Of a DNA stretch of 26,271 nt, positions 1-26,124 are shown piece after piece. Numbering within the stretch: position 1 is the stretch's first letter; each line of letters begins with the position of its first letter. The notes below the pieces were generated by a model, which did no database searches, was not told where the DNA came from, and saw only the letters and a list, made by a program, of their open reading frames with translations. Origin of the DNA: a virus. The position numbers and the translations under genes are program-made. The stretch lies in UHGV virus genome UHGV-0343389; one strand, given 5' to 3'.

Positions 1-1
1 G

Positions 2-343
2 GATATGTGTGCACATGCAAACAAAATTGCATCAGAAGCAGGAAAGTCACTTCCCATAAAATTGAATGATAATATGTCTATTGTTTCAATAAATGCAATA
101 CTAAACAAACTCTTAGTTGTAGCGCATCTTAATTACAACAACAGCTATTTATCAAAAGTTTATAATGGTGATGTAACCTTAGAAAATAAATTAAAGAGTG
201 TAATGCGAAATTATTCAAAATCGAGCATTTGCTCCAACAGGCAAATGAAAGCATTTATTCACCTTGGCGGAGAGATTGAGTATAGGTATGTATTTAGTGA
301 TGGCAATATATTTGATACATACGCCATCACTAATTGTGAATAG
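2..343 (+). CDS. 5'-truncated AT-rich hypothetical protein (C-terminal 112 aa visible); convergent with the virion module
   Basis: Open frame from the window edge to TAG at 341-343. Visibly AT-rich against the neighbouring operon. Its stop abuts the stop of the 1129-aa minus-strand gene (TAGCTA). No recognisable motifs. Confidence 0.45.
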   Translation, partial: DMCAHANKIASEAGKSLPIKLNDNMSIVSINAILNKLLVVAHLNYNNSYLSKVYNGDVTLENKLKSVMRNYSKSSICSNRQMKAFIHLGGEIEYRYVFSDGNIFDTYAITNCE

Positions 344-3300
344 CTATTTCATCTGCTCTTCAACTTTATTTAGTAACGGTGATATCGCCCACAGGTTCTG
401 AAAAGGTAGCATTTTACGGACCGCGTGGGTTTGCTGGCTGTCAAATTCTCCGTTAAGTACACCATTCGCAACCGTCGCGGCATCACCGCCAAGATCAAAG
501 GTAGGACCAAGTAAAGCACCAATAGCATTACGACTCTGAAACCTTGATACCGGAGGCGCACCAAACATCGCGCCAAGACCAAACCTACCGCCGCTTATGT
601 TCTCAACGGTATTCAGCGGCTCAGAGAGCCAGCCAAGCATTCCGCCCCGGTCGATCCCCTCTTTCACAAGGTTATTCCAGCTGTAGTCGATATCGCGACC
701 GCTTAACTTCTGTTTCATCATATAGACCATTGAGCCAAGCGCAATCGTGCCAAGCGCACCAAGATAGAATGCAGCATCGCCCTGCTGGATACCAGATACT
801 AGCACCCTGTTATGCTGTGCGAAGATAAACGTTTTGAACTGCGTGATCATCTTCCAGCCTTCTTTACTAAAAAACAGCGGTGTATCACCTACGCCAGGCG
901 TTACAATCACTGAGTCTACATCTTTCAGCACTGCAGACTGGAAAATCTCTCTAGCGAAACGGTCATCCCACAGATGACTATGCCCGGTTAACAGCCCGTC
1001 CATATCCTCTCCGTGCTTCCCGAATTGCTCCCCGATTCGGCGCAGAACATCTTCATTGATGCCGACCTGTGCCATCTTCCGCATTTCACTTTTGGAGAGC
1101 GTGCCACCAGCAGAAACTTGGCGAGCCGCGTCAAGTATCCTCGACTGCACTATCATCCCGGACCATGATTTAAGTGCGCTGTTCCACTGATTCATCAGCG
1201 TCCAGTTACCGAATTTCTGCGTCATCCAGTTCAGACCTCGCTCAGCGGCGCTTCTCCGGCTATAGGGGTCAGTAAGATCCGCTATAGCCTTTGTACGCGT
1301 AGACAGGACATAATCAAGCCCAACGGCCATTTCTCGCAAATCCCTGGTTGCAATTTTCACTGAGTCCATATTTTTAAGCATGCTTACCATTGGTCCGAGA
1401 GATTTTCTCAGGCCATGCTGCATCATCGGTCGCATCAGATCAGTTGCAGCGGAGACAGTCATTCCACCAAGCAAACGGAGGAAGTTAATATTCCTAGCAA
1501 CTCGCCCGGCACGAACAAAGAAACTGCGTGGATCTTGAGGTGCACCGTAAGTACCAAGCAGTCGATCACGCATAGCCGTAATATCCCTAATATCAGCCTC
1601 CCGTTGCTTCTCAAGAACTGCACGTCGTTTAGGTGTTTTAGCCTCTTTTATTAGCCGGGTATATTCCTCACTAACCTGACGGATTTGCTCCCCCATATCT
1701 TTACGGCCAAACTGCGCAGTCAGCTCAATTTCTGGTGCCACCTGCCGGAGATAACTTTCCATGATGTAGTTAACATCTGATTCAAGAAAATCTTCTATAC
1801 GCTCATCAGGAATAAGCAGCGTTCTGCTTTTAGTGAAACCAGCCCGACCAACGAGTCTCTCTGGGATAATATCGGCTGGTACAAGCCCGGAAGGTGCGCC
1901 TATTATTTTATTCACGATCTCGTCAGCAGCGTCCTCTGCTTCCTCTCGGGATAGAGGCTCCATCTGCTTCAGTGCTCGTTCGCGGCTTGCATTCAGCCTT
2001 GTGGTTGAATTTGCCCGTTTTTGCAGTCGGCGAAGCTCAGAACGATATTTCCGTGGATTATCCAGCAACTCCATATGGCGCTGATAGACAGGAAGCTCAC
2101 TCTTTGCCTGCGCTATATCATCAAGGCGTGTTTTAAGGTCAGAGCTTTCTTTCATCATTCTTGCCTGAAGTTTTTCTGATGAAGTCTCGGCCAACTCTTT
2201 TTCTATTCTTGTAAGACGCGCCTGTGTGTCAGTCTCCTGAGATATAAGCTTATTTCGTTTATCCAGTTCTTCCATAAGTAGAATTTTTTTACCAGACCAT
2301 TTCTCCGCTTCAGCGATTTCACTAGCGAGAGCATCAGCGCGCGGTGCCGATTCCTCTGCAGTTTTTAGCAATGAATTTATCCTTTCAATTCGCTGACCTG
2401 CTTTGTCAGCACCTTTGGCACTAATCCCTTGTATCCAGTTGGCAATTCGCCCTCTGAATTCAGTGCGGTCGGAAAGTATCTTATCGAACTTATAAATGCG
2501 GGGAAGATAACTTTTCGCCGTCACGACATCGATATCCTCAGGAAGGATCCCCAGTTCCTGCATACGGGCTTTTGTGGTCTCGAAAATGGGGCGGATTCTG
2601 GCGGCTGCTTGTGAAACCTCAGGAATATCACTCTGATCACCACGGCGCATAGCCATGCCAACAGCTTCATTGAAATCAATAAAGCTCATCCTCTTCACGC
2701 CGCGGGCGCTAACAGATTTGCTGTACTGCTGGTAAGCATCACGAGTGGCTTCCATCTGCTTATAAAGCATGGCGTCGTATTGCTTAATCTTAGTCTCGAC
2801 TGCCGTAAACGTAGCCAACCCCTCATCATTTTTGGCGAAGAAATAGTTATTTTCGGCAAGCTGCTGGTTAATCTGACGGGAGACAAGAGATGGTGATTGA
2901 GCCAAGCGGCCAGCAGGAGTGACACTCAACGTTTTGTTAGCAAGTCCAAGTCCAGCGAGCTGTTCCTGATCGAGTGTGGTATTGAAAACCTGAGCTGCAC
3001 CAATGCTTTGAGGAGAATCCATACCTCGCAAATGATTACCTACTGAGTTAACCACTGCCTCGCGCGCGCTAGGTCCAGCAAGTAGCTGTGCACCAGCACC
3101 AAGGATCCCACCAACGAGAGCATCAACAACAACGTTCGATACGCTCTCCATCGGTGAGCGAGCTTCCTGAGTGGCCTGTAATGCGGCTTCTGATACTCCC
3201 CCACCAGCAGCATTCGCTAGGGCAAAACGCCCTGCCGTCTCAGCAATACTTCCTCCACGCGCTACCGCCCCTACAGGGATGAACATTGCAGCCACATTAA

Positions 3301-13521: not shown

Positions 13522-13814
13522 TCCTGTTCACTGGCCTCTTTGGCCATCTTCAAATACTGTTCAGGGCAATGCGCCATAACGCGCTGAAACAGCTCCAGCG
13601 CCAGATTGCGTTGCCCCTCATAAAATGCCATTGCCATAGCGTCCATCGGAGAGATAGCGGAAAACACCCGGCCTTTCTCCAGCACAGACCAGACAACGCG
13701 ACGCCCCTGTTCACTGCTCATGACAAAGCGAATGTCATCAATTTCACGCTGCGCCATGTCACGTTGCTTACGGGCGTTTTCTTCTTTCAGTTGATCGTCT
13801 TCGTAATCTGTCAT
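13518..13814 (-). CDS. Hypothetical small head-module protein
   Basis: 98-aa ORF translationally coupled to both the portal stop and the scaffold start. Confidence 0.45.
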   Translation of the reverse strand: MTDYEDDQLKEENARKQRDMAQREIDDIRFVMSSEQGRRVVWSVLEKGRVFSAISPMDAMAMAFYEGQRNLALELFQRVMAHCPEQYLKMAKEASEQE

Positions 13815-15490
13815 TGTGATTGCCCACCCTGACCACTAACTGCATTCGCCATAGCTGACAAAACACTCGGATCCGAAGTTTTAGCTTCGCTTAGCGTCTT
13901 GGCACCCTGTGCCGCCGCCATCCCCATCTCCATCATTTGTTGCTGCTGTTGTTGCTGTGCCCGTTGCTGGCGAGCCTGCTCAACCTGTTCCTGCGGAACA
14001 ATGACGGTTGGAGACACTCCGGACATATCAGCGAATGCATCGATCGCCTGATCAACGTTGAGTTTGTCGAGAGCTTCTGGTTTCGCTTGCGCAAGTTGAC
14101 CAATGAAGTTGACCGTAGACGCCAGACTGGACAGGCCGATAGACTTCTGCGCCTGAGCCATGACGGAAATGTATTCGACCTTCAGGGGCATACCTTCCAT
14201 CGCGTCAGGCGGTGGCGGCAGCATGTTTTTACGCACCATCATCGAGAAAGCGCGGTCAATGAGAGGATTAAGACATTCGTCGTTCAGACGCTCCAGAACC
14301 GGCCCCAACATCAGAAGTTTTTCTTCTTTCATTTCGATCACCGCTTCAACAGGCATCGAGCGGGTATTGATGTTCTGCAACATCATGAACAGATCGACAA
14401 AGTAGGCGCTGTTAATGATTTGACGAGTGTCCTGAATGTCTGCCACCAAATCTGCTGTACTGGGGTTAACCAGATAAGCAGGCCTGAAACCATCATGACC
14501 AGTAATCTGATCGATATACGTGATGTCGCCAGGAAGAAGGGAGGCGCGCTGATTCTTGAGGGAAGTCGGAGCAACCATCGGCGGATTGGTGGCTTTATCA
14601 ATCAACTGCGACTTGCGCTTCTGGAGAAGCTGCAATGCCTTAACAGGTCCAAGCGCCAGCATACCCGGGCATGATGATCCATAAACATCTTCGCCGTTAA
14701 CTTCCCAGCGCGGAGCCATAATTGGAAACTCATCGAATCCGGACTCACGCAACAACTTGTCGTTATCGCCACCAACCTCGTAATAAACCGATTTGAATGG
14801 CTTGTTCTTGCTATCCAGCTTCGATGTATCGCGGTCAATGTTCGGGTAAACCGAATGCATCACTTCAATCCACTTCTCGTAGGTGCCGCTTTCCCACATG
14901 CTTTTTACGGATTCGCTGACGTTATTTAGCCCGAACTCCTGAACAAGCTGACGAACAGTCATAGAGAACTTGCGAAAACAGGTGTCCACACTGCCACGAG
15001 GTGAGTTAGCCAGGTAGTAACTTCCTATCGGGAATGGCATTGTGCGAATGATGTCCTCGTCATCCTCCAGCACTGCCATTGCACCAGTGCTGTATGTGCC
15101 GAGGCTTCCGTATAACTGCGGCAGCGACTGATAGAGATTCGACTTATTGAACATATCGTTCATGCGGTTCTGCACCGCCTCAAGCCACAACTTAACAGGG
15201 CCATAATCCATCATTTCAGGATCTGGCGTAGCCAGGCGAAACCACGGACGCGCGGGGCTTGTGATGCCTGACATCATGCCGCTGGCGAGAGTGCGCGCCG
15301 CCATAGTCCCGGTCGAATCAATAATGCGTGTATTGCGTCGATCGTTACGGTTGACCTCAGAAGTCAGAAAGCGGGAACCACGCGGGTTGATGTAATCACT
15401 CAACTCGCGCCAGTGCGGCTCGAACGACTGACGCTCGCTTTCAAGTTGTGCGAACTGTTTGTTCAATCGCTCTTTAGTTGTTTCCGCCAT
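13811..15490 (-). CDS. Portal (head-to-tail connector) protein, T7 gp8-like
   Basis: 559 aa. C-terminal Gln-rich tail (QQRAQQQQQQQMMEMGMAAAQG) resembles the gp8 C-terminus as recalled from memory. First large gene of the morphogenesis operon. Confidence 0.7.
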   Translation of the reverse strand: MAETTKERLNKQFAQLESERQSFEPHWRELSDYINPRGSRFLTSEVNRNDRRNTRIIDSTGTMAARTLASGMMSGITSPARPWFRLATPDPEMMDYGPVKLWLEAVQNRMNDMFNKSNLYQSLPQLYGSLGTYSTGAMAVLEDDEDIIRTMPFPIGSYYLANSPRGSVDTCFRKFSMTVRQLVQEFGLNNVSESVKSMWESGTYEKWIEVMHSVYPNIDRDTSKLDSKNKPFKSVYYEVGGDNDKLLRESGFDEFPIMAPRWEVNGEDVYGSSCPGMLALGPVKALQLLQKRKSQLIDKATNPPMVAPTSLKNQRASLLPGDITYIDQITGHDGFRPAYLVNPSTADLVADIQDTRQIINSAYFVDLFMMLQNINTRSMPVEAVIEMKEEKLLMLGPVLERLNDECLNPLIDRAFSMMVRKNMLPPPPDAMEGMPLKVEYISVMAQAQKSIGLSSLASTVNFIGQLAQAKPEALDKLNVDQAIDAFADMSGVSPTVIVPQEQVEQARQQRAQQQQQQQMMEMGMAAAQGAKTLSEAKTSDPSVLSAMANAVSGQGGQSQ

Positions 15491-15504
15491 TTCAATGACT
15501 CCGG

Positions 15505-15711
15505 TTACTGACCAAGCAGCGTTTTACCGCTGGTATTAGCGGTTGATGTGTCGCCCTGAGAACCGGTAAGCAGCGTAGAACTACGACCAGCAGCAGCGCG
15601 ACGGCGACGAGTTTCTTCGTCGCGGGCATCAACAACGGCGGCATCCTGCTCCTGTGGTGCTGCCTGAACTTCTGGTGTTGCAGGCACTGATGGTGAGCTA
15701 CCCATGCACAT
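15505..15711 (-). CDS. Small hypothetical protein preceding portal
   Basis: 68-aa ORF with GGAG upstream. Low-complexity Ala/Arg/Thr-rich. Coding status uncertain. Confidence 0.3.
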   Translation of the reverse strand: MCMGSSPSVPATPEVQAAPQEQDAAVVDARDEETRRRRAAAGRSSTLLTGSQGDTSTANTSGKTLLGQ

Positions 15712-15739
15712 ATCAATGACTCCGTACGCAATTAAATTA

Positions 15740-15754
15740 TTACCAATTTAACCA
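15740..15754. promoter_or_regulatory. Half-site of the TTACC-N5-GGTAA operator (TTACCAATTTAACCA)
   Basis: Left half perfect, right half degenerate. Centre is exactly 62 bp from the perfect site at 15802-15816. Confidence 0.35.
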
Positions 15755-15801
15755 CATATGATTTATTTATCGTAGACAGTTGACATTTAACGCACGAATT
15801 A

Positions 15802-15816
15802 TTACCTTTCAGGTAA
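15802..15816. promoter_or_regulatory. Operator-like palindrome TTACCTTTCAGGTAA upstream of the portal operon
   Basis: Perfect 5+5 inverted repeat with 5-bp spacer, in the intergenic region between the portal operon and the tRNA island. Overlaps a TTGACA-containing candidate promoter. Confidence 0.6.
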
Positions 15817-16138
15817 CCAAAGAGTTCATTCCGGTTACTAACCTGACTGGCTTGTCGTTAAATTGAACAGGTGGAGTGAGCTTTTATTTTGAGCAGTACG
15901 GCGTATGGCACATGCGCCGATAGCGGTCTGGATACGTTTAAGGGGCACCCTCCCTTGCTCGGGCAAACGAACCAGGTAGCCGGAATGTGCAAGTCGAGCG
16001 GTTTTATTCCGCGCACGGGGATTCACCATCCAGGCGATTCGGTGTGACACCTCGGAAGAGACGAGGGTACAACGATGAGAGCATTTATGGAGCCGCGACA
16101 AAGTGTGGCGCCTTAACAGGCTAAGTGCTCTCAGCGTT

Positions 16139-16215
16139 GTGGCATTAGCTCAGCTGGACAGAGCAACCGCCTTCTAAGCGGTTGGTCGCAGGTTCGAATC
16201 CTGCATGCCACGCCA
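16139..16215 (+). tRNA. tRNA-Arg (anticodon UCU), phage-encoded
   Basis: Cloverleaf folded by hand: acceptor GTGGCAT/ATGCCAC, D-stem GCTC/GAGC, anticodon stem ACCGC/GCGGT with loop CTTCTAA, T-stem GCAGG/CCTGC with loop TTCGAAT, discriminator G and encoded CCA. 77 nt. Confidence 0.9.
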
Positions 16216-16259
16216 GAATCACGCCTAAGGACCGTGATGCCAGAAGTTCCAGGGGGCTT

Positions 16260-16301
16260 GGCGGTGATGGTTTCCCTTGAAGGACTATCACCGCCCTTTT
16301 T
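16260..16301 (+). terminator. Rho-independent terminator downstream of the tRNA
   Basis: GGCGGTGAT ... ATCACCGCC stem followed by TTTTT. Confidence 0.6.
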
Positions 16302-16379
16302 ACAGCAGGACGCCATTGCGATGACTTCATGCTGTAAACCAGTACAGCCACGGAAGGCATAACTCATTGCTTCCAGTTC

Positions 16380-16404
16380 GCCCGGTTCGCCGGGCATTTT
16401 TTTT
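16380..16404 (+). terminator. Rho-independent terminator (UUCG tetraloop)
   Basis: GCCCGG-TTCG-CCGGGC followed by ATTTTTTTT. Confidence 0.7.
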
Positions 16405-16429
16405 AGGTGAGATTATCAAGACAATTGAT

Positions 16430-16837
16430 ATGTTGGCTAAGTATCTAAATGAATGGCCATTAAAATATTCTCGTATCGTTCAGGCTGAAGACTGCATTTT
16501 TTATGGCGTTTTTGCTGGTAATGAAATGCATTACGAAGTAATTCAGAGTGAGGGGCTGACCGGGTTAACTCTTAGAGAAGACCATGGTACTAGCGTTACG
16601 TTCCATGACTGGATAACAGCACAACGTTCTGAAATGGAAAAAGGCGATGTGTTTGATATTTCTCGCTCTGTTTGCGCTAAAGCAAAAAGTGATAATGATT
16701 ACATGAGCGAACACTTATACAACATGAAGCTACAGTGCCTTGCCGAGGTGCTTGGTAAAAAAGCTATTGTCGATAAACAAGGCGCCATTAGCGAAGCAAA
16801 GGCAATAAATGCTGCATTTGATGAAATTATTTTCTAG
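16430..16837 (+). CDS. AT-rich cargo (moron) gene, hypothetical 135-aa soluble protein
   Basis: ORF on the opposite strand to all flanking phage genes. Markedly lower GC than neighbours. Bracketed by intrinsic terminators. No signal peptide or TM segment apparent. The ATG at 16430 is preferred because the upstream TTG extension runs through a terminator hairpin. Confidence 0.6.
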   Translation: MLAKYLNEWPLKYSRIVQAEDCIFYGVFAGNEMHYEVIQSEGLTGLTLREDHGTSVTFHDWITAQRSEMEKGDVFDISRSVCAKAKSDNDYMSEHLYNMKLQCLAEVLGKKAIVDKQGAISEAKAINAAFDEIIF

Positions 16838-16840
16838 CTC

Positions 16841-16854
16841 TGTGACATGTCACA
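16841..16854. repeat. Perfect 14-bp palindrome TGTGACATGTCACA
   Basis: Read directly from the sequence, 4 nt after the cargo-gene stop. Its 12-bp core recurs at 19293-19304. Confidence 0.5.
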
Positions 16855-16857
16855 AAC

Positions 16858-16886
16858 AGCCAGCCGATGAGCTGGCTTTGTTTTAT
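16858..16886 (+). terminator. Rho-independent terminator after the cargo gene
   Basis: AGCCAGC-cgatga-GCTGGCT followed by TTGTTTTAT. Lies between the convergent cargo gene and terL. Confidence 0.6.
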
Positions 16887-16927
16887 CCTCATCAGAGGAT
16901 ATCAACGACATTATCCCCACCAGCGGA

Positions 16928-18403
16928 TTAATCATAGGGATCGTAATCTGTGATGGCCTTGCCTTGCTGGTTCTGCTGCCCGGGAATTCGCAGACGCTTC
17001 GACACAGGGAAAGCAAACGTCAGCAGTAGCGCATCGCCTTTACCCGGCGAGCGCCCAAGCCGCTCCTTGATATCTTCCTTCGGTTCGATAACGATTTTAC
17101 CGTCCACTCGAACTTTGTACTCTGCCGCCGACAGGTCGTCCGCTGTTTCCTGGTCATCCAGCATGCCGCCCAGCCTCAGCCATGTCTTGCATGAGTTGAA
17201 CATCTCCCCGCGCTTATTGAGCATCTGCGGGTCAGTAGACGCGCCACCGAACGGAACAAGTTGCCATGTACGACCCCAGCCGTCACCGATTGACTTCAGA
17301 CCAGTTCCGTAACCGAAGTCGATGAACACTGCGTCAGCCTGGTACTGGTCTTCAAAGTCAGCGATACGCTTCGCCATAATCAGATCGTCAGTAGTCTTGT
17401 TGCCAGTCCACAGCACCTTACTGTGCAGCCCCTGCCGCAGGTATATCACCGCGTCATCAACGCCTGAGTATGCCGGGTCAACGCCGATTATCACCGGAGC
17501 ATGTGCAACCTGCGCAGCGGTTACCACCCGTTTCATTGCCTCATCAGTAAGACCGGTAGGGATAAACTGCAATTCAGATGCATCAGGGAATATGCCGCGC
17601 ACACGGATTTTAACGAAGTCGCTGTCTTCCCCGTAGTCATCAACCCATTTCTGCAACTGCTGTTTGTTAGTGCCTTCCACCGTCCGGCTGTCAATCTGCG
17701 CACACTTCCAGCGGTGTTTGTACTTGCGGAAACATTCACGGAAACGCCCGGTGTTACGCGTCGGGTTCCCGAACGCCACCCAGATGATTTCGGTGTCTTC
17801 GTCCGTCAGCGCACCCTCTGCTACCTCCCACACAAGATCGGCAATATTCGACGCTTCATCGAATACCACGATGATGCGTTTGCGCTCGTTGTGTAGTCCG
17901 GCGAATGCCTCAGTGTTGTGCTCAGACCAGGGGATTGCGTCAGCTCGCCACCGCTTGTCGTGCCCAGGGTCATTGCTGTACATCGCGGTAGCGGTACAGG
18001 TAAACCAGTCTTTCGTGATAGCAAGGTTTGACCACTTGATAATTTCCGGCCAGGTCTTCGTTCGTAGCTGGTTGTCGGTGTTGGCGGTCACCACGACCTT
18101 ACAATCCTCGCAAGTGGACATGCCCCAGTTGATCAGCATTGAGATAAATGCGGATTTACCAATACCGTGACCAGAAGCGCGTGCCAGCATAAGCGGCTGA
18201 TAGCGCGTCTCTGGATTCTGCAGGTGATCACGTATCTCTCGGAACGCATCAGCCTGCCATTGACGTGGGCCGGTAGCATGTGCCAGTTCAGTCCCCTCTT
18301 CCCCCCACGGGAACGCATAGAGAGCATAGCCAAGCGGATCGTGAGTGAACCCTGCAATATCCTCGATCAACTGCTCTTCAGGAGATAACGCTGTATCTGT
18401 CAC
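16928..18403 (-). CDS. Terminase large subunit
   Basis: 491 aa. Walker A-like GHGIGKS near the N-terminus. Acidic nuclease-like segment (VIIGVDPAYSG) in the C-terminal half. GTG start overlaps the terS stop (GTGA). Confidence 0.85.
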   Translation of the reverse strand: MTDTALSPEEQLIEDIAGFTHDPLGYALYAFPWGEEGTELAHATGPRQWQADAFREIRDHLQNPETRYQPLMLARASGHGIGKSAFISMLINWGMSTCEDCKVVVTANTDNQLRTKTWPEIIKWSNLAITKDWFTCTATAMYSNDPGHDKRWRADAIPWSEHNTEAFAGLHNERKRIIVVFDEASNIADLVWEVAEGALTDEDTEIIWVAFGNPTRNTGRFRECFRKYKHRWKCAQIDSRTVEGTNKQQLQKWVDDYGEDSDFVKIRVRGIFPDASELQFIPTGLTDEAMKRVVTAAQVAHAPVIIGVDPAYSGVDDAVIYLRQGLHSKVLWTGNKTTDDLIMAKRIADFEDQYQADAVFIDFGYGTGLKSIGDGWGRTWQLVPFGGASTDPQMLNKRGEMFNSCKTWLRLGGMLDDQETADDLSAAEYKVRVDGKIVIEPKEDIKERLGRSPGKGDALLLTFAFPVSKRLRIPGQQNQQGKAITDYDPYD

Positions 18404-18996
18404 TGATTACCATCCTGACGTTCTTTGAGTCGCTTCCTGGCTGCTGCTATGCGATCAGCAATTGTCACATTCACATTAACATCCAGGCGTTCTTTGAATG
18501 CGTTGACGTCGACGTGCTTACCAATCAGTTCGAGGTTCTTCACCTTGTCAGGCCATTTAATTTTTTTGAGGATTGTCTCTATCGAATCCTCGTTCATGTT
18601 CATGATGGTCGATGACAGATCAAAGCCGCTAAGCGTAGTGCGCCAGATTTTCGGCCACTCGCGGATTGGCTTAAGGCTCCCATCGTCGTTGAGGATGTCG
18701 ATCACGTCCATCTGGTCGATCTCCACCAGGCGCATGAGAACGTAATCAGCACTGACGCGCATTCGTTTGTTGCGCTCTTCCATCAGCTCGGCAATCCGTT
18801 TTTGAATGCGTTCATCGCGCATCATGACACTGGCTTTAACTGCCGCTGTATTTGGGGAGAATCCTGCGTTAATCGCTGCCTGAGTCTGGTTTTCAGGCGT
18901 TTTGATGTATGACTGGCAATAAGCCTCCTGCATTGCTGTTAGTGGCTTAAATTGCGTTGATTTGCGTTTATAGGTTTTAGGTTCAGCAGGCATCAT
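18400..18996 (-). CDS. Terminase small subunit
   Basis: Immediately upstream of terL and translationally coupled. Start trimmed to ATGATG at 18996 (SD GGTGG). The longer track ORF to 19074 reads through operator repeats and a terminator. Confidence 0.65.
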   Translation of the reverse strand: MMPAEPKTYKRKSTQFKPLTAMQEAYCQSYIKTPENQTQAAINAGFSPNTAAVKASVMMRDERIQKRIAELMEERNKRMRVSADYVLMRLVEIDQMDVIDILNDDGSLKPIREWPKIWRTTLSGFDLSSTIMNMNEDSIETILKKIKWPDKVKNLELIGKHVDVNAFKERLDVNVNVTIADRIAAARKRLKERQDGNQ

Positions 18997-19010
18997 AACC
19001 ACCGTGGTAA
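18996..19010. promoter_or_regulatory. Operator-like site TAACCACCGTGGTAA (one mismatch), overlapping the terS start
   Basis: Inverted repeat 18 bp (centre to centre) from the perfect site at 19014-19028. Confidence 0.45.
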
Positions 19011-19013
19011 TAG

Positions 19014-19028
19014 TTACCGTTGTGGTAA
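19014..19028. promoter_or_regulatory. Operator-like palindrome TTACCGTTGTGGTAA upstream of terS
   Basis: Perfect match to TTACC-N5-GGTAA, between an intrinsic terminator and the terS start codon. Confidence 0.6.
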
Positions 19029-19039
19029 TAGTACCATGC

Positions 19040-19065
19040 AAAATAAAGCCGCCATAGTTGGCGGC
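19040..19065 (-). terminator. Rho-independent terminator immediately upstream of the terminase operon
   Basis: On the minus strand: GCCGCC-AACTAT-GGCGGC followed by TTTATTTTG. Confidence 0.6.
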
Positions 19066-19070
19066 AGTAT

Positions 19071-19283
19071 TCAAAGTCCATCAAATTCATCGTAAAAACT
19101 CTCGTCAAGATACCCTTCCCATTTACCGCGAATGAAAATTACATCCTCGCCGCAAGGGTGCTGACTGTCGATAACTATATCCCTCCTGGCGCAACCATAC
19201 TTATGCATGAGAAATTTAACCTCTTTCGGAAAATTTGCTGAGTTATCTCTCATATCTTCAAGGTCGTAGCGTATTTTTGGCAT
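19071..19283 (-). CDS. Hypothetical 70-aa protein
   Basis: ORF with SD GAAGGTG. ATG at 19283 is preferred over the GTG at 19304 that lies inside the palindrome. Confidence 0.4.
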   Translation of the reverse strand: MPKIRYDLEDMRDNSANFPKEVKFLMHKYGCARRDIVIDSQHPCGEDVIFIRGKWEGYLDESFYDEFDGL

Positions 19284-19292
19284 AACACCTTC

Positions 19293-19304
19293 GTGACATG
19301 TCAC
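19293..19304. repeat. Perfect 12-bp palindrome GTGACATGTCAC (second copy)
   Basis: Lies between the zinc-ribbon gene stop and the 70-aa gene start. Confidence 0.5.
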
Positions 19305-19642
19305 ACTATTAATTTCGTTTCATGCCAGCCTTTGGTTACCCAGCATTGCGAGTCACCATTACACGGGCATGAATTCACAGGAACTCTCTCGCCGCACTTA
19401 CCGCAACGTTTTCTGCTGATCGATTTTATACGCCCGCGCACGCGTGCATCATCCTGGCGGATCAGTAACGCTATATACTCACCAAATTCGTAAGGCGCAC
19501 GCCCGGGGCGACGTGTGGCACAGTTACGCTCCAGCATTTCAATTTCCTGAGCATCAAGCACAATCTCCAGCTTACGTACACCAGATGCAGCTTGTCTGGC
19601 TCTCTGAGCGGCTTTGCGCTCTGCTGCTGATTTAGCCATCAA
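19301..19642 (-). CDS. Small basic zinc-ribbon protein, candidate transcriptional regulator
   Basis: 113 aa. Basic N-terminus (AERKAAQRARQ). C-terminal Cys cluster CGKCGERVPVNSCPCNGDSQC. Last gene before the terminator and terminase operon. Confidence 0.45.
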   Translation of the reverse strand: MMAKSAAERKAAQRARQAASGVRKLEIVLDAQEIEMLERNCATRRPGRAPYEFGEYIALLIRQDDARVRGRIKSISRKRCGKCGERVPVNSCPCNGDSQCWVTKGWHETKLIV

Positions 19643-22944: not shown

Positions 22945-22947
22945 GAT

Positions 22948-22962
22948 TTACCTCTGAGGTAA
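22948..22962. promoter_or_regulatory. Operator-like palindrome TTACCTCTGAGGTAA
   Basis: Perfect site just upstream of the 22944 start codon. Centre 62 bp from the site at 23010-23024. Confidence 0.6.
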
Positions 22963-23009
22963 TTAAAAACCACATAAGACACGAAATCAATAGATTTTAG
23001 AATATTTTA

Positions 23010-23024
23010 TTACCTAGAAGGTAA
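23010..23024. promoter_or_regulatory. Operator-like palindrome TTACCTAGAAGGTAA
   Basis: Perfect site. Together with 22948-22962 it flanks a candidate minus-strand promoter. Confidence 0.6.
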
Positions 23025-23061
23025 TCATCGAGACGTAAAAAAATGCGCCATCGCGCTGGTA

Positions 23062-25001: not shown

Positions 25002-25232
25002 TCATGAGTAGAAGAAGTATGCCAGTTCTGCTTTTGAGCGCAGCCATTGTCTTGTTTTACAGGCTTTAAAAAGCCCATTCATCAATACTTTACCTGGCAT
25101 TTTGCGCTTACCTGTTAAGTGAGTCTGGATATAGTGACTCGTCGTTCCGGCTTCCTGTGCGAAGGCTTCACGCTCATCCGGAGTAAGTGCAAGCCAGTGC
25201 TTTTTGAAATCGAAATGTCCGTTATCGCTCAT
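25002..25232 (-). CDS. Cro-like HTH regulator
   Basis: 76 aa with HTH-like segment (REAFAQEAGTTSHYIQTHLTGKRKM). Divergent from the repressor gene across an operator-rich region and followed by the replication genes. Confidence 0.55.
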   Translation of the reverse strand: MSDNGHFDFKKHWLALTPDEREAFAQEAGTTSHYIQTHLTGKRKMPGKVLMNGLFKACKTRQWLRSKAELAYFFYS

Positions 25233-25314: not shown

Positions 25315-25316
25315 AT

Positions 25317-25331
25317 TTACCTGTTGGGTAA
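25317..25331. promoter_or_regulatory. Operator-like palindrome TTACCTGTTGGGTAA (OR region)
   Basis: Perfect site in the cro/cI intergenic region. Confidence 0.6.
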
Positions 25332-25386
25332 TATTGCTTTAAATTGAATCATCTACTGATTCATATATGAGGCGATTTTCCAGAAA

Positions 25387-25971
25387 ATGAAAAGTATCCA
25401 GGACGTCCGCAGGCAAAATCTCAACGACTTGATCGACCGTGAATTCAATGGTGTTCAGACGCGGATGGCAGAAAAACTTGGAACTCAGGCAAATCTGGTA
25501 AACCGCTGGGCTCTTGGCAAGAAGGTTATCGGCGACCAGGTTGCGCGAAAAATTGAAGCTGCCGCCAATAAACCCCGTAACTGGCTTGATATCGATCGCT
25601 CGCTTTCTCAGGAAGGTTTTCAGCCTGTCGGCCCAAGCGACATTGGTCAGCTGGCGGCTCACAACCTGGAACGCTGGATGAGCGAAAGCCGCGACCTTTC
25701 AACACAGGGAAAACTTCACCGCGCATCCGGCGTCGCCCAGGTGACAATCAGCCGCCTGTTAAACAATGAGGTTAGCGTTTCCATTTCCACCCTGGAGAAT
25801 GTGGCATCCGCATTCGGGCGTCACGGCTATGAATTACTGATTCACCCGCACGACCCTGCGACCATCAACTATGACCGCTCGCGCTACGCATTGTTACCCG
25901 AAACCGAGAAAGCAAAGATCGAAAGTTACATTGAATTTGTCATCAACCAGAACGAAAAAAGCAAACAATAA
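25387..25971 (+). CDS. CI-like immunity repressor with two HTH (XRE-type) domains and no recognisable S24 peptidase domain
   Basis: 194 aa. HTH 1 near residues 20-45 (QTRMAEKLGTQANLVNRWALGKK). HTH 2 near residues 110-140 (LHRASGVAQVTISRLLNNEVSVS). No Ser/Lys autocleavage module evident. Divergent from the Cro-like gene. Confidence 0.6.
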   Translation: MKSIQDVRRQNLNDLIDREFNGVQTRMAEKLGTQANLVNRWALGKKVIGDQVARKIEAAANKPRNWLDIDRSLSQEGFQPVGPSDIGQLAAHNLERWMSESRDLSTQGKLHRASGVAQVTISRLLNNEVSVSISTLENVASAFGRHGYELLIHPHDPATINYDRSRYALLPETEKAKIESYIEFVINQNEKSKQ

Positions 25972-26018: not shown

Positions 26019-26028
26019 GCCAGATAGA

Positions 26029-26043
26029 TTACCTTACGGGTAA
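26029..26043. promoter_or_regulatory. Operator-like palindrome TTACCTTACGGGTAA (OL-like, upstream of -35)
   Basis: Perfect site. Centre 62 bp from the site at 26091-26105. Confidence 0.6.
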
Positions 26044-26062
26044 TTTTTTTAACTCATATCTA

Positions 26063-26091
26063 TTGACACCAAACCAAATAAGCATAATTAT
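26063..26091 (+). promoter_or_regulatory. Sigma-70-like promoter (TTGACA, 16-17 bp spacer, TAATTA/AATTAT), pL-like
   Basis: Consensus -35 hexamer at 26063-26068 and an AT-rich -10 at about 26085-26091. Flanked by two operator-like sites. Drives the plus-strand gene starting at 26125. Confidence 0.55.
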
Positions 26092-26105
26092 TACCTCAAC
26101 GGTAA
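26091..26105. promoter_or_regulatory. Operator-like palindrome TTACCTCAACGGTAA overlapping the -10/start region
   Basis: Perfect site immediately downstream of or overlapping the -10 element. Confidence 0.6.
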
Positions 26106-26124
26106 CAGACCGAGGTAACAAGTT

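Follow-up and report, generated by a model that had tools for sequence, protein, structure and literature searches.

A small gene at 16430-16837 in a 26,271-nt stretch of phage DNA (the window) is the last element of a plus-strand unit that consists of a promoter with operator, a structured RNA, a tRNA, two terminators, a Shine-Dalgarno sequence and the gene itself, which we call the cargo gene. Our leading reading, which we hold at a little under even confidence and which is built on sequence comparison, is that this is an early, repressor-controlled accessory gene encoding a candidate counter-defence protein. The original prediction had pictured a stand-alone orphan gene that could be active in the lysogen. 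The orphan description does not hold, as the cargo gene is separated from the promoter by a covarying structured RNA and a tRNA-Arg(UCU), both encoded on its own strand, and we consider an early counter-defence role more likely than a lysogen-expressed gene.

By its sequence, the window is part of an epsilon15/phiV10-like podovirus of the genus Uetakevirus, either free or integrated. Over positions 15500-17000, identity is 98.5% with Escherichia phage HEMP4 and 92% with vB_EcoP_PAS61; the flanks match phiV10 and many other phages, and in E. coli MS20659 the corresponding element is a prophage adjoining guaA. The minus strand carries the genes for the portal (13811-15490), a gp3-like protein of 68 aa (15505-15711), the large terminase TerL (16928-18403) and the small terminase (terS; 18400-19074). 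A cro-like gene (25002-25232) and a cI-like gene of 194 aa (25387-25971) diverge from an intergenic region of 154 bp. At the edge of the window, the gene that the original prediction also singled out, an AT-rich ORF at 5-343 (+), encodes 112 aa next to an 1129-aa virion gene, in a stretch with a GC content of 0.33 (composition window 1-400); it had no significant PADLOC or NCBIfam match.

The predicted ORF is present at 16430-16837 (+) with 135 codons, its GC content of 0.39 is lower than that of TerL (0.55) and portal (0.52) as had been proposed, and TerL, the gp3-like gene and portal all lie on the opposite strand. The product is predicted to be soluble, again in line with the original prediction: its maximum 19-residue Kyte-Doolittle mean is 0.64, and by this measure it has no transmembrane segment of the kind used to recognize membrane superinfection-exclusion proteins. 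We collected 81 homologues, from Escherichia, Citrobacter, Salmonella, Enterobacter and Klebsiella. The gene is real and under purifying selection, with dN/dS of about 0.26 overall, 0.16-0.18 in the N-terminal domain and 0.27 in the C-terminal module.

The reading frame of the family is longer than this ORF, spanning 16415-16837 (+; 140 codons), so that ATG 16430 corresponds to Met6 and yields the 135-aa version. The protein matches phrog_4846, which has no annotated function in PHROGs, over its full length (E = 5e-84; residues 1-135 against profile positions 6-140), and homologues begin MKTIDMLAKY, five codons 5' of ATG 16430, that is, at 16415. There, within 16412-16432, the window has ATC (GAGATTATCAAG) where relatives have GAGATCATGAAA; all 28 other copies from fetched loci have ATG at this position, including the 98.5%-identical HEMP4. 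The Shine-Dalgarno sequence at 16405-16411 serves 16415 and lies 18 nt from the remaining ATG. Because the canonical ATG is ATC, expression or translation of the window allele is probably reduced. Start loss together with the distant Shine-Dalgarno sequence might even mean that this allele is decaying into a poorly expressed or silent remnant, which we think quite unlikely: the frame shows no other damage and shares 98-99% identity with copies that look functional, 135-aa versions turn up more than once in the protein database (entries P0003 and P0019), and initiation at ATC/ATT or at Met6 may still work. Decay would in any case concern the window allele and not the role of the family.

Alignment of the window with phiV10 and PAS61 revealed a cargo slot with sharp edges, in which identity extends up to the Shine-Dalgarno sequence and resumes 5 nt past the stop codon (GTGACATGTCAC...); phiV10 has an unrelated 123-aa gene between these edges. 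For a census of the slot, we used TerL to gather loci from GTDB genomes and IMG/VR, with TerL and either gp3 or portal serving as anchors. This yielded 106 slots, of which 80 belong to phages whose TerL is at least 99% identical. The most frequent occupant was the phiV10-type gene of the Acb4 family (PF13876; 41/106 loci), followed by the cargo family of the window (phrog_4846; 29/106), the membrane and coiled-coil protein phrog_4780 (17 loci), phrog_27507 (8), phrog_21608 (3), phrog_3163 and phrog_3054 (2 each), and an HNH endonuclease and a Tad2-like fusion protein (1 each, the latter in Klebsiella phage ST512-KPC3phi13.3); about 9 loci were empty. Usually there is one cargo per slot. Even phages that share a TerL at 99% identity or more can differ in the gene at this exact position, with flanks conserved to the base. 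Two Enterobacter prophages have three plus-strand genes instead, a cargo homologue being followed 12 nt later by an Acb4 gene and then by an 82-aa gene. Acb4 alternates in the slot with five or more further uncharacterised families, among them two membrane proteins and one repeat-rich protein with MSGDV repeats. These are candidates for accessory or anti-defence functions; PADLOC searches with the other slot cargos returned coiled-coil noise only.

Exchange of the cargo was also evident among complete E. coli genomes. The cargo gene occurs in 61 of 5,426, every copy being chromosomal, and about 158 further genomes share only the 39-nt right flank (16842-16880, 100% conserved) and therefore carry other cargo; some 4% of complete genomes thus have the right flank and some 1% the cargo gene. 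The cargo gene is an exchangeable, compositionally foreign passenger in a fixed slot. The earlier description of moron-like cargo survives to this extent, in its foreign composition and its fixed, swappable location, but the repressor independence and lysogen expression that it proposed are not supported.

These two properties are called into question by the promoter of the unit. A promoter scan identified a sigma-70-like promoter at 15773-15802 (+; TAGACA, 18-nt spacer, AATTAT), within which a perfect TTGACA lies at 15780-15785. Its -10 element overlaps the operator palindrome ATTACCTTTCAGGTAAC (15801-15817, +), and an upstream operator-like site, ATTACCAATTTAACCAC (15739-15755, +), has an intact left half-site and a degenerate right half, is near-invariant across genera and aligns in register with the corresponding operator at two other promoters. 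When up to two mismatches are allowed, the operator motif ATTACCT-N3-AGGTAAT occurs at six sites in the window (15801-15817, 22947-22963, 23009-23025, 25316-25332, 26028-26044 and 26090-26106) against 0.04 expected, and no shuffle reached six. The site at 25316-25332 falls in the cro-like/cI-like intergenic region, with more half-matching sites beside it. Three promoters, at 26063-26091 (+), 22966-22994 (-) and 15773-15802 (+), share one layout, in base-for-base register: an upstream operator, 18 nt, the -35 element, 17-18 nt, and a -10 element (AATTAT or TTTAAT) fused to a downstream operator, with operator centres 62 bp apart. At 15739-15817 the layout is oriented towards the structured RNA, the tRNA and the cargo gene. 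Because both layout and motif match other promoters of the phage, we read the 15773-15802 promoter as operator-controlled and early-type. The operator sites probably mark a set of promoters controlled by the cI and cro proteins of the phage, and the position of the motif in the immunity region points to cI as the binder of the putative operator. We also considered whether the operator pair serves a divergent gp3-portal promoter and rejected this, as order and spacings match, in the plus orientation, those of the two reference promoters. Just 5' of the start of the gp3-like gene, a block at 15712-15760, AAATTATTACCAATTTAACCA(C/T)ATA, is near-invariant from Escherichia to Buttiauxella and diverges more in Pantoea and Rahnella; besides the operator half-site, it may hold a divergent promoter for the gp3-portal operon.

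The original prediction had placed the gene probably outside repressor control on the view that no operator palindrome lies nearby. This view does not hold: a palindrome, TGTGACATGTCACA, is found 3 nt past its stop codon, and the operator-type palindrome overlaps the promoter of the unit. On the plus strand between 15803 and 16430, consensus scans revealed no promoter-like site, a result that such scans do not make decisive, and inspection by eye of the stretch between the terminators and the gene turned up no convincing sigma-70-like promoter. The cargo gene therefore lacks a recognisable promoter of its own, and the nearest credible plus-strand promoter, about 630 nt upstream and the sole credible one there, is the one that carries the operator motif.

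Between this promoter and the cargo gene lie two RNA elements. ARAGORN placed a tRNA-Arg with anticodon UCU at 16139-16215 (+), which Rfam also recognised (RF00005, 71.7 bits). Its 5' end is abutted by the closing helix of a conserved structured RNA, with a core at 15892-16142 (+) and an optional 5' hairpin from about 15820, giving about 250-330 nt overall. An alignment of 16 sequences, drawn from about ten genera, gives this RNA seven helices and 49 predicted pairs with 96.2% of cells paired; there were 20 compensatory pairs compared with 8.3 +/- 1.6 in shuffles (0/500 reached 20) and at most 6 in slid controls, and the G-U pairs fit the plus strand only. Its invariant blocks include the loop UAUGGCACAUG and GGUAGCCGGAAUGUGCAAG, and variable hairpins are inserted at two points. 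Rfam searches of the window at the gathering threshold and of 15400-17000 at E up to 1 returned only the tRNA and one sub-threshold antisense match. The structured RNA might act in cis to bring polymerase past the terminators, which is speculation on our part. In five loci from genera without the tRNA (L015, L016, L019, L024 and L028) ARAGORN found no tRNA-Arg; another element stands in that position, closed by GTTGTGGT...ACCACAAC and with the same conserved ATCACGCCTTAGGACCGTGAT block behind it, and may be a tRNA-like processing signal.

Two terminators upstream of the gene and one downstream had been predicted, and plus-strand terminator-like hairpins do lie at 16260-16295, 16380-16395 and 16858-16877, in a window whose raw count of such hairpins is not above chance (4 found, 2.1 +/- 1.5 expected). 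The first has a 14-bp stem followed by CTTTTTAC (16260-16304, +). The second, GCCCGGTTCGCCGGGC followed by A and eight Ts (16380-16404, +), directly abuts the Shine-Dalgarno sequence AGGTGAG (16405-16411, +), which is common to all alternative cargo genes; its stem is kept across genera by compensatory changes (GCCCGG/CCGGGC versus GCCCAC/GTGGGC), and it forms the conserved left edge of the slot. Between the two terminators is an inverted repeat, TTTACAGCA...TGCTGTAAA (16299-16338, +), conserved across genera. The conserved right edge is the palindrome already mentioned, a perfect 14-bp repeat at 16841-16854 with no strand assigned, beyond which a terminator hairpin followed by TTTGTTTTAT (16858-16886, +) converges with the end of TerL and is an annotated terminator in phiV10. 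A second copy of the palindrome, identical over 13 nt, lies at 19293-19305, where two small minus-strand ORFs meet. A 77-aa ORF and the terS-terL genes are enclosed by the pair of palindromes, which could be sites for a regulator or recombination boundaries. From the tRNA trailer to the cargo leader (16213-16435, +), the minimum free energy is -79.7 kcal/mol (z = -4.0 against shuffled controls), and in the predicted fold the Shine-Dalgarno region is paired with the conserved post-tRNA block, a possible sign of translational control. Pfam searches of the early-region genes recognised no N- or Q-like antiterminator. Since there is no recognisable intervening promoter and the second hairpin abuts the Shine-Dalgarno sequence, the cargo gene would be reached by read-through, by antitermination or from a promoter invisible to the scans.

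The original prediction had not recognised the protein, and remote-homology and structure searches likewise gave no sequence or fold relative of established function. The protein is acidic (pI 5.0). Its AlphaFold2 model (pLDDT 80.7) begins with an alpha/beta domain (residues 1-75), followed by a disordered linker (81-90) and, at the C-terminus, a helical hairpin (93-137). Stand-alone versions of the C-module, 61-70 aa long, also fill the slot, one of them in a Pseudomonas prophage, and the module is found behind another N-terminus as well. The N-domain combines with a third, 'HPH' module (phrog_16206/4621), in some cases together with the C-module and in others not. One relative with the N-domain and 'HPH' module lies outside the usual slot (locus L123, 366-740), at a prophage end adjoining an Acyl_transf_3 gene of O-antigen acyltransferase type and host genes.

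Searches with the cargo protein returned no Pfam family at E up to 10, no NCBIfam or PDB sequence match, no PADLOC-DB 2.0 family at E up to 1 and, in PHROGs, only the family of unknown function; PDB fold searches with the model gave no significant match. Foldseek against BFVD returned five unnamed phage proteins (E = 1e-3 to 1e-2), which gave no clue to function. A full-library profile search recovered 31 cluster representatives, all of one narrow family, and a profile of the N-domain alone added no further relatives or fusions. Among 50,697 phage records, tblastn matched only HEMP4, PAS61, Tyrion (under two accession numbers) and BUCT554. A literature search by accession or PHROG number found no publication on the family, and its motifs were absent from the part of the supplementary tables of Tal et al. 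that we searched. TadIV-1 was also considered and rejected: this T4 protein has been described as a sponge with a structure of its own kind, and no significant match came out of the fold searches with the cargo model. The phrog_4846 protein family is uncharacterised, whereas the kind of element, an accessory gene at a hot spot of temperate phages and probably an anti-defence locus, is already known.

How might such a unit work? As the 15773-15802 promoter is built like the other operator-controlled promoters of the phage, we expect it to be silent in the lysogen and to come on early after infection or induction. Transcription would then yield the structured RNA, the tRNA-Arg and the two terminator hairpins in turn, and polymerases that pass both terminators would allow the cargo to be translated from the shared Shine-Dalgarno sequence. 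The protein would act in the infected cell for the benefit of the phage, most likely by neutralising a host anti-phage system, in the way of the Acb4 and Tad2-like sponges that use this slot. The anatomy of the unit, the exchange of cargo, the operator motif and the company that the gene keeps are observations, whereas the action of cI as repressor, passage through the terminators, and the counter-defence role with its target are what we infer. We rank counter-defence above a role in defence, exclusion or lysogenic conversion, since Acb4 and the Tad2-like protein, both of anti-defence sponge families, are the only slot occupants that have been characterised. The cargo protein is small, acidic and soluble, is under purifying selection and lacks a PADLOC defence match, all of which is compatible with such a role. 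Against it, neither sequence nor fold searches linked the protein to any known anti-defence protein, two apparently good terminators separate the promoter from the gene, and the start codon is lost in the window. Guilt by association is also a weak guide here, as most other slot-mates are uncharacterised and two membrane proteins among them could be exclusion factors.

The same observations bear on two other roles. A classic moron, expressed from the prophage and benefiting the host through defence, superinfection exclusion or lysogenic conversion, would be in keeping with an AT-rich, swappable gene bracketed by terminators and with slot occupants such as phrog_4780 and phrog_3054, membrane and coiled-coil proteins that resemble exclusion proteins; the N-domain relative next to the acyltransferase gene at a prophage end, a classic lysogenic-conversion neighbourhood, counts against counter-defence and in favour of this role. 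We nevertheless regard it as unlikely. The scan found no promoter belonging to the cargo gene, the closest credible plus-strand promoter upstream of it bears the operator motif of the phage, the protein has neither a PADLOC match nor a membrane segment, and the characterised slot-mates are all anti-defence proteins. A lysogen of the related phage ZX5, which has a different slot cargo, showed no growth, stress or virulence phenotype (PMC9782041), a weak and indirect argument in the same direction. Somewhat unlikely, in our judgement, is an early gene with a non-immune role, in host takeover, in control of the tRNA or structured RNA (processing, stability or charging) or in modulating the lysis-lysogeny decision. 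That the cargo shares an operator-controlled, early-type unit with a tRNA and a structured RNA would suit this role, and no fold or sequence clue narrows the function. Yet the cargo is dispensable: unrelated genes replace it in phages that keep both the RNA and the tRNA, so it is not needed for either, and the replacements are mostly immune-signal sponges.

We also see an outside chance that the unit holds more novelty than this: that the protein, or its 45-aa helical module, founds a new counter-defence family within a repressor-controlled early unit, that the undescribed RNA confers put-like read-through of two terminators, and that the tRNA-Arg(UCU) may offset anticodon-nuclease defences. 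As a stand-alone protein, the 45-aa module is found in this slot in hosts ranging from Enterobacteriaceae to Pseudomonas. If the counter-defence reading is correct, the slot would be a discovery site in a prophage family common in E. coli, Salmonella, Klebsiella and Enterobacter, alternating two known immune-signal sponges with at least six uncharacterised small proteins, including phrog_4846, each of them a short, clonable candidate inhibitor of bacterial immunity. From the operator-controlled arrangement of RNA, tRNA and cargo one can also see how the timing of such genes might be set in a temperate podovirus, and the unit adds a well-supported structured RNA that matches no Rfam family.

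The put RNA of HK022 is a structured RNA located just 3' of an early-type promoter and 5' of terminators, as is the RNA in the window; ROOL and GOLLD are large RNAs that adjoin phage tRNAs, as this one does. The window RNA, at about 250-330 nt, fits neither kind, and Rfam matched the tRNA only. The morons of lambdoid phages (Juhala/Hendrix) are likewise foreign genes inserted between genes that are adjacent in relatives, with a terminator 3' and in the opposite orientation. The cargo gene shares with them the deviating base composition and the presence, absence or replacement in syntenic relatives, but lacks a recognisable promoter of its own and sits behind two terminators and a unit promoter with the phage operator motif.

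Among anti-defence proteins, the closest comparison is with Acb4 (PF13876, the N4 gp49/Sf6 gp66 family), an anti-CBASS nucleotide sponge (Chang et al., bioRxiv 10.1101/2024.12.30.630793). It uses the same slot, Shine-Dalgarno sequence and flanks in phiV10 and most close relatives, is of similar size to the cargo protein (112-130 aa) and lies 12 nt 3' of the cargo homologue in the Enterobacter prophages. As a positive control, phiV10 p03 matched PF13876 at E = 6e-35 and had a weak direct match to the solved Acb4 chain. The cargo protein, by contrast, has no PF13876 match (Pfam, E up to 10), its model has no fold match to solved Acb4 (9e4w), and its predicted architecture differs, pairing an alpha/beta domain with a helical hairpin. 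Tad2 (Thoeris anti-defence 2; PF11195/DUF2829) is also a small, soluble phage protein, and a Tad2-like protein fills the same slot; that cargo, from Klebsiella phage ST512-KPC3phi13.3, matched PF11195 at E = 4e-26 and solved Tad2 chains at E = 4e-16, a second positive control, whereas the cargo protein of the window has no sequence or fold similarity to Tad2 (Pfam, PDB chains). Sequestin (PF21825) is a short helical sponge that is often fused to Acb4 or Tad2 (bioRxiv 10.1101/2025.07.12.664507). The C-module differs from it in sequence, with an hhalign probability of 0.1% against Sequestin A-C and no Pfam family, but is similarly short (45-60 aa) and all-helical, occurs alone or fused and lies beside sponge genes. 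The modular shuffling of small domains in the cargo family likewise resembles the fusions described for these sponges (bioRxiv 10.1101/2025.07.12.664507).
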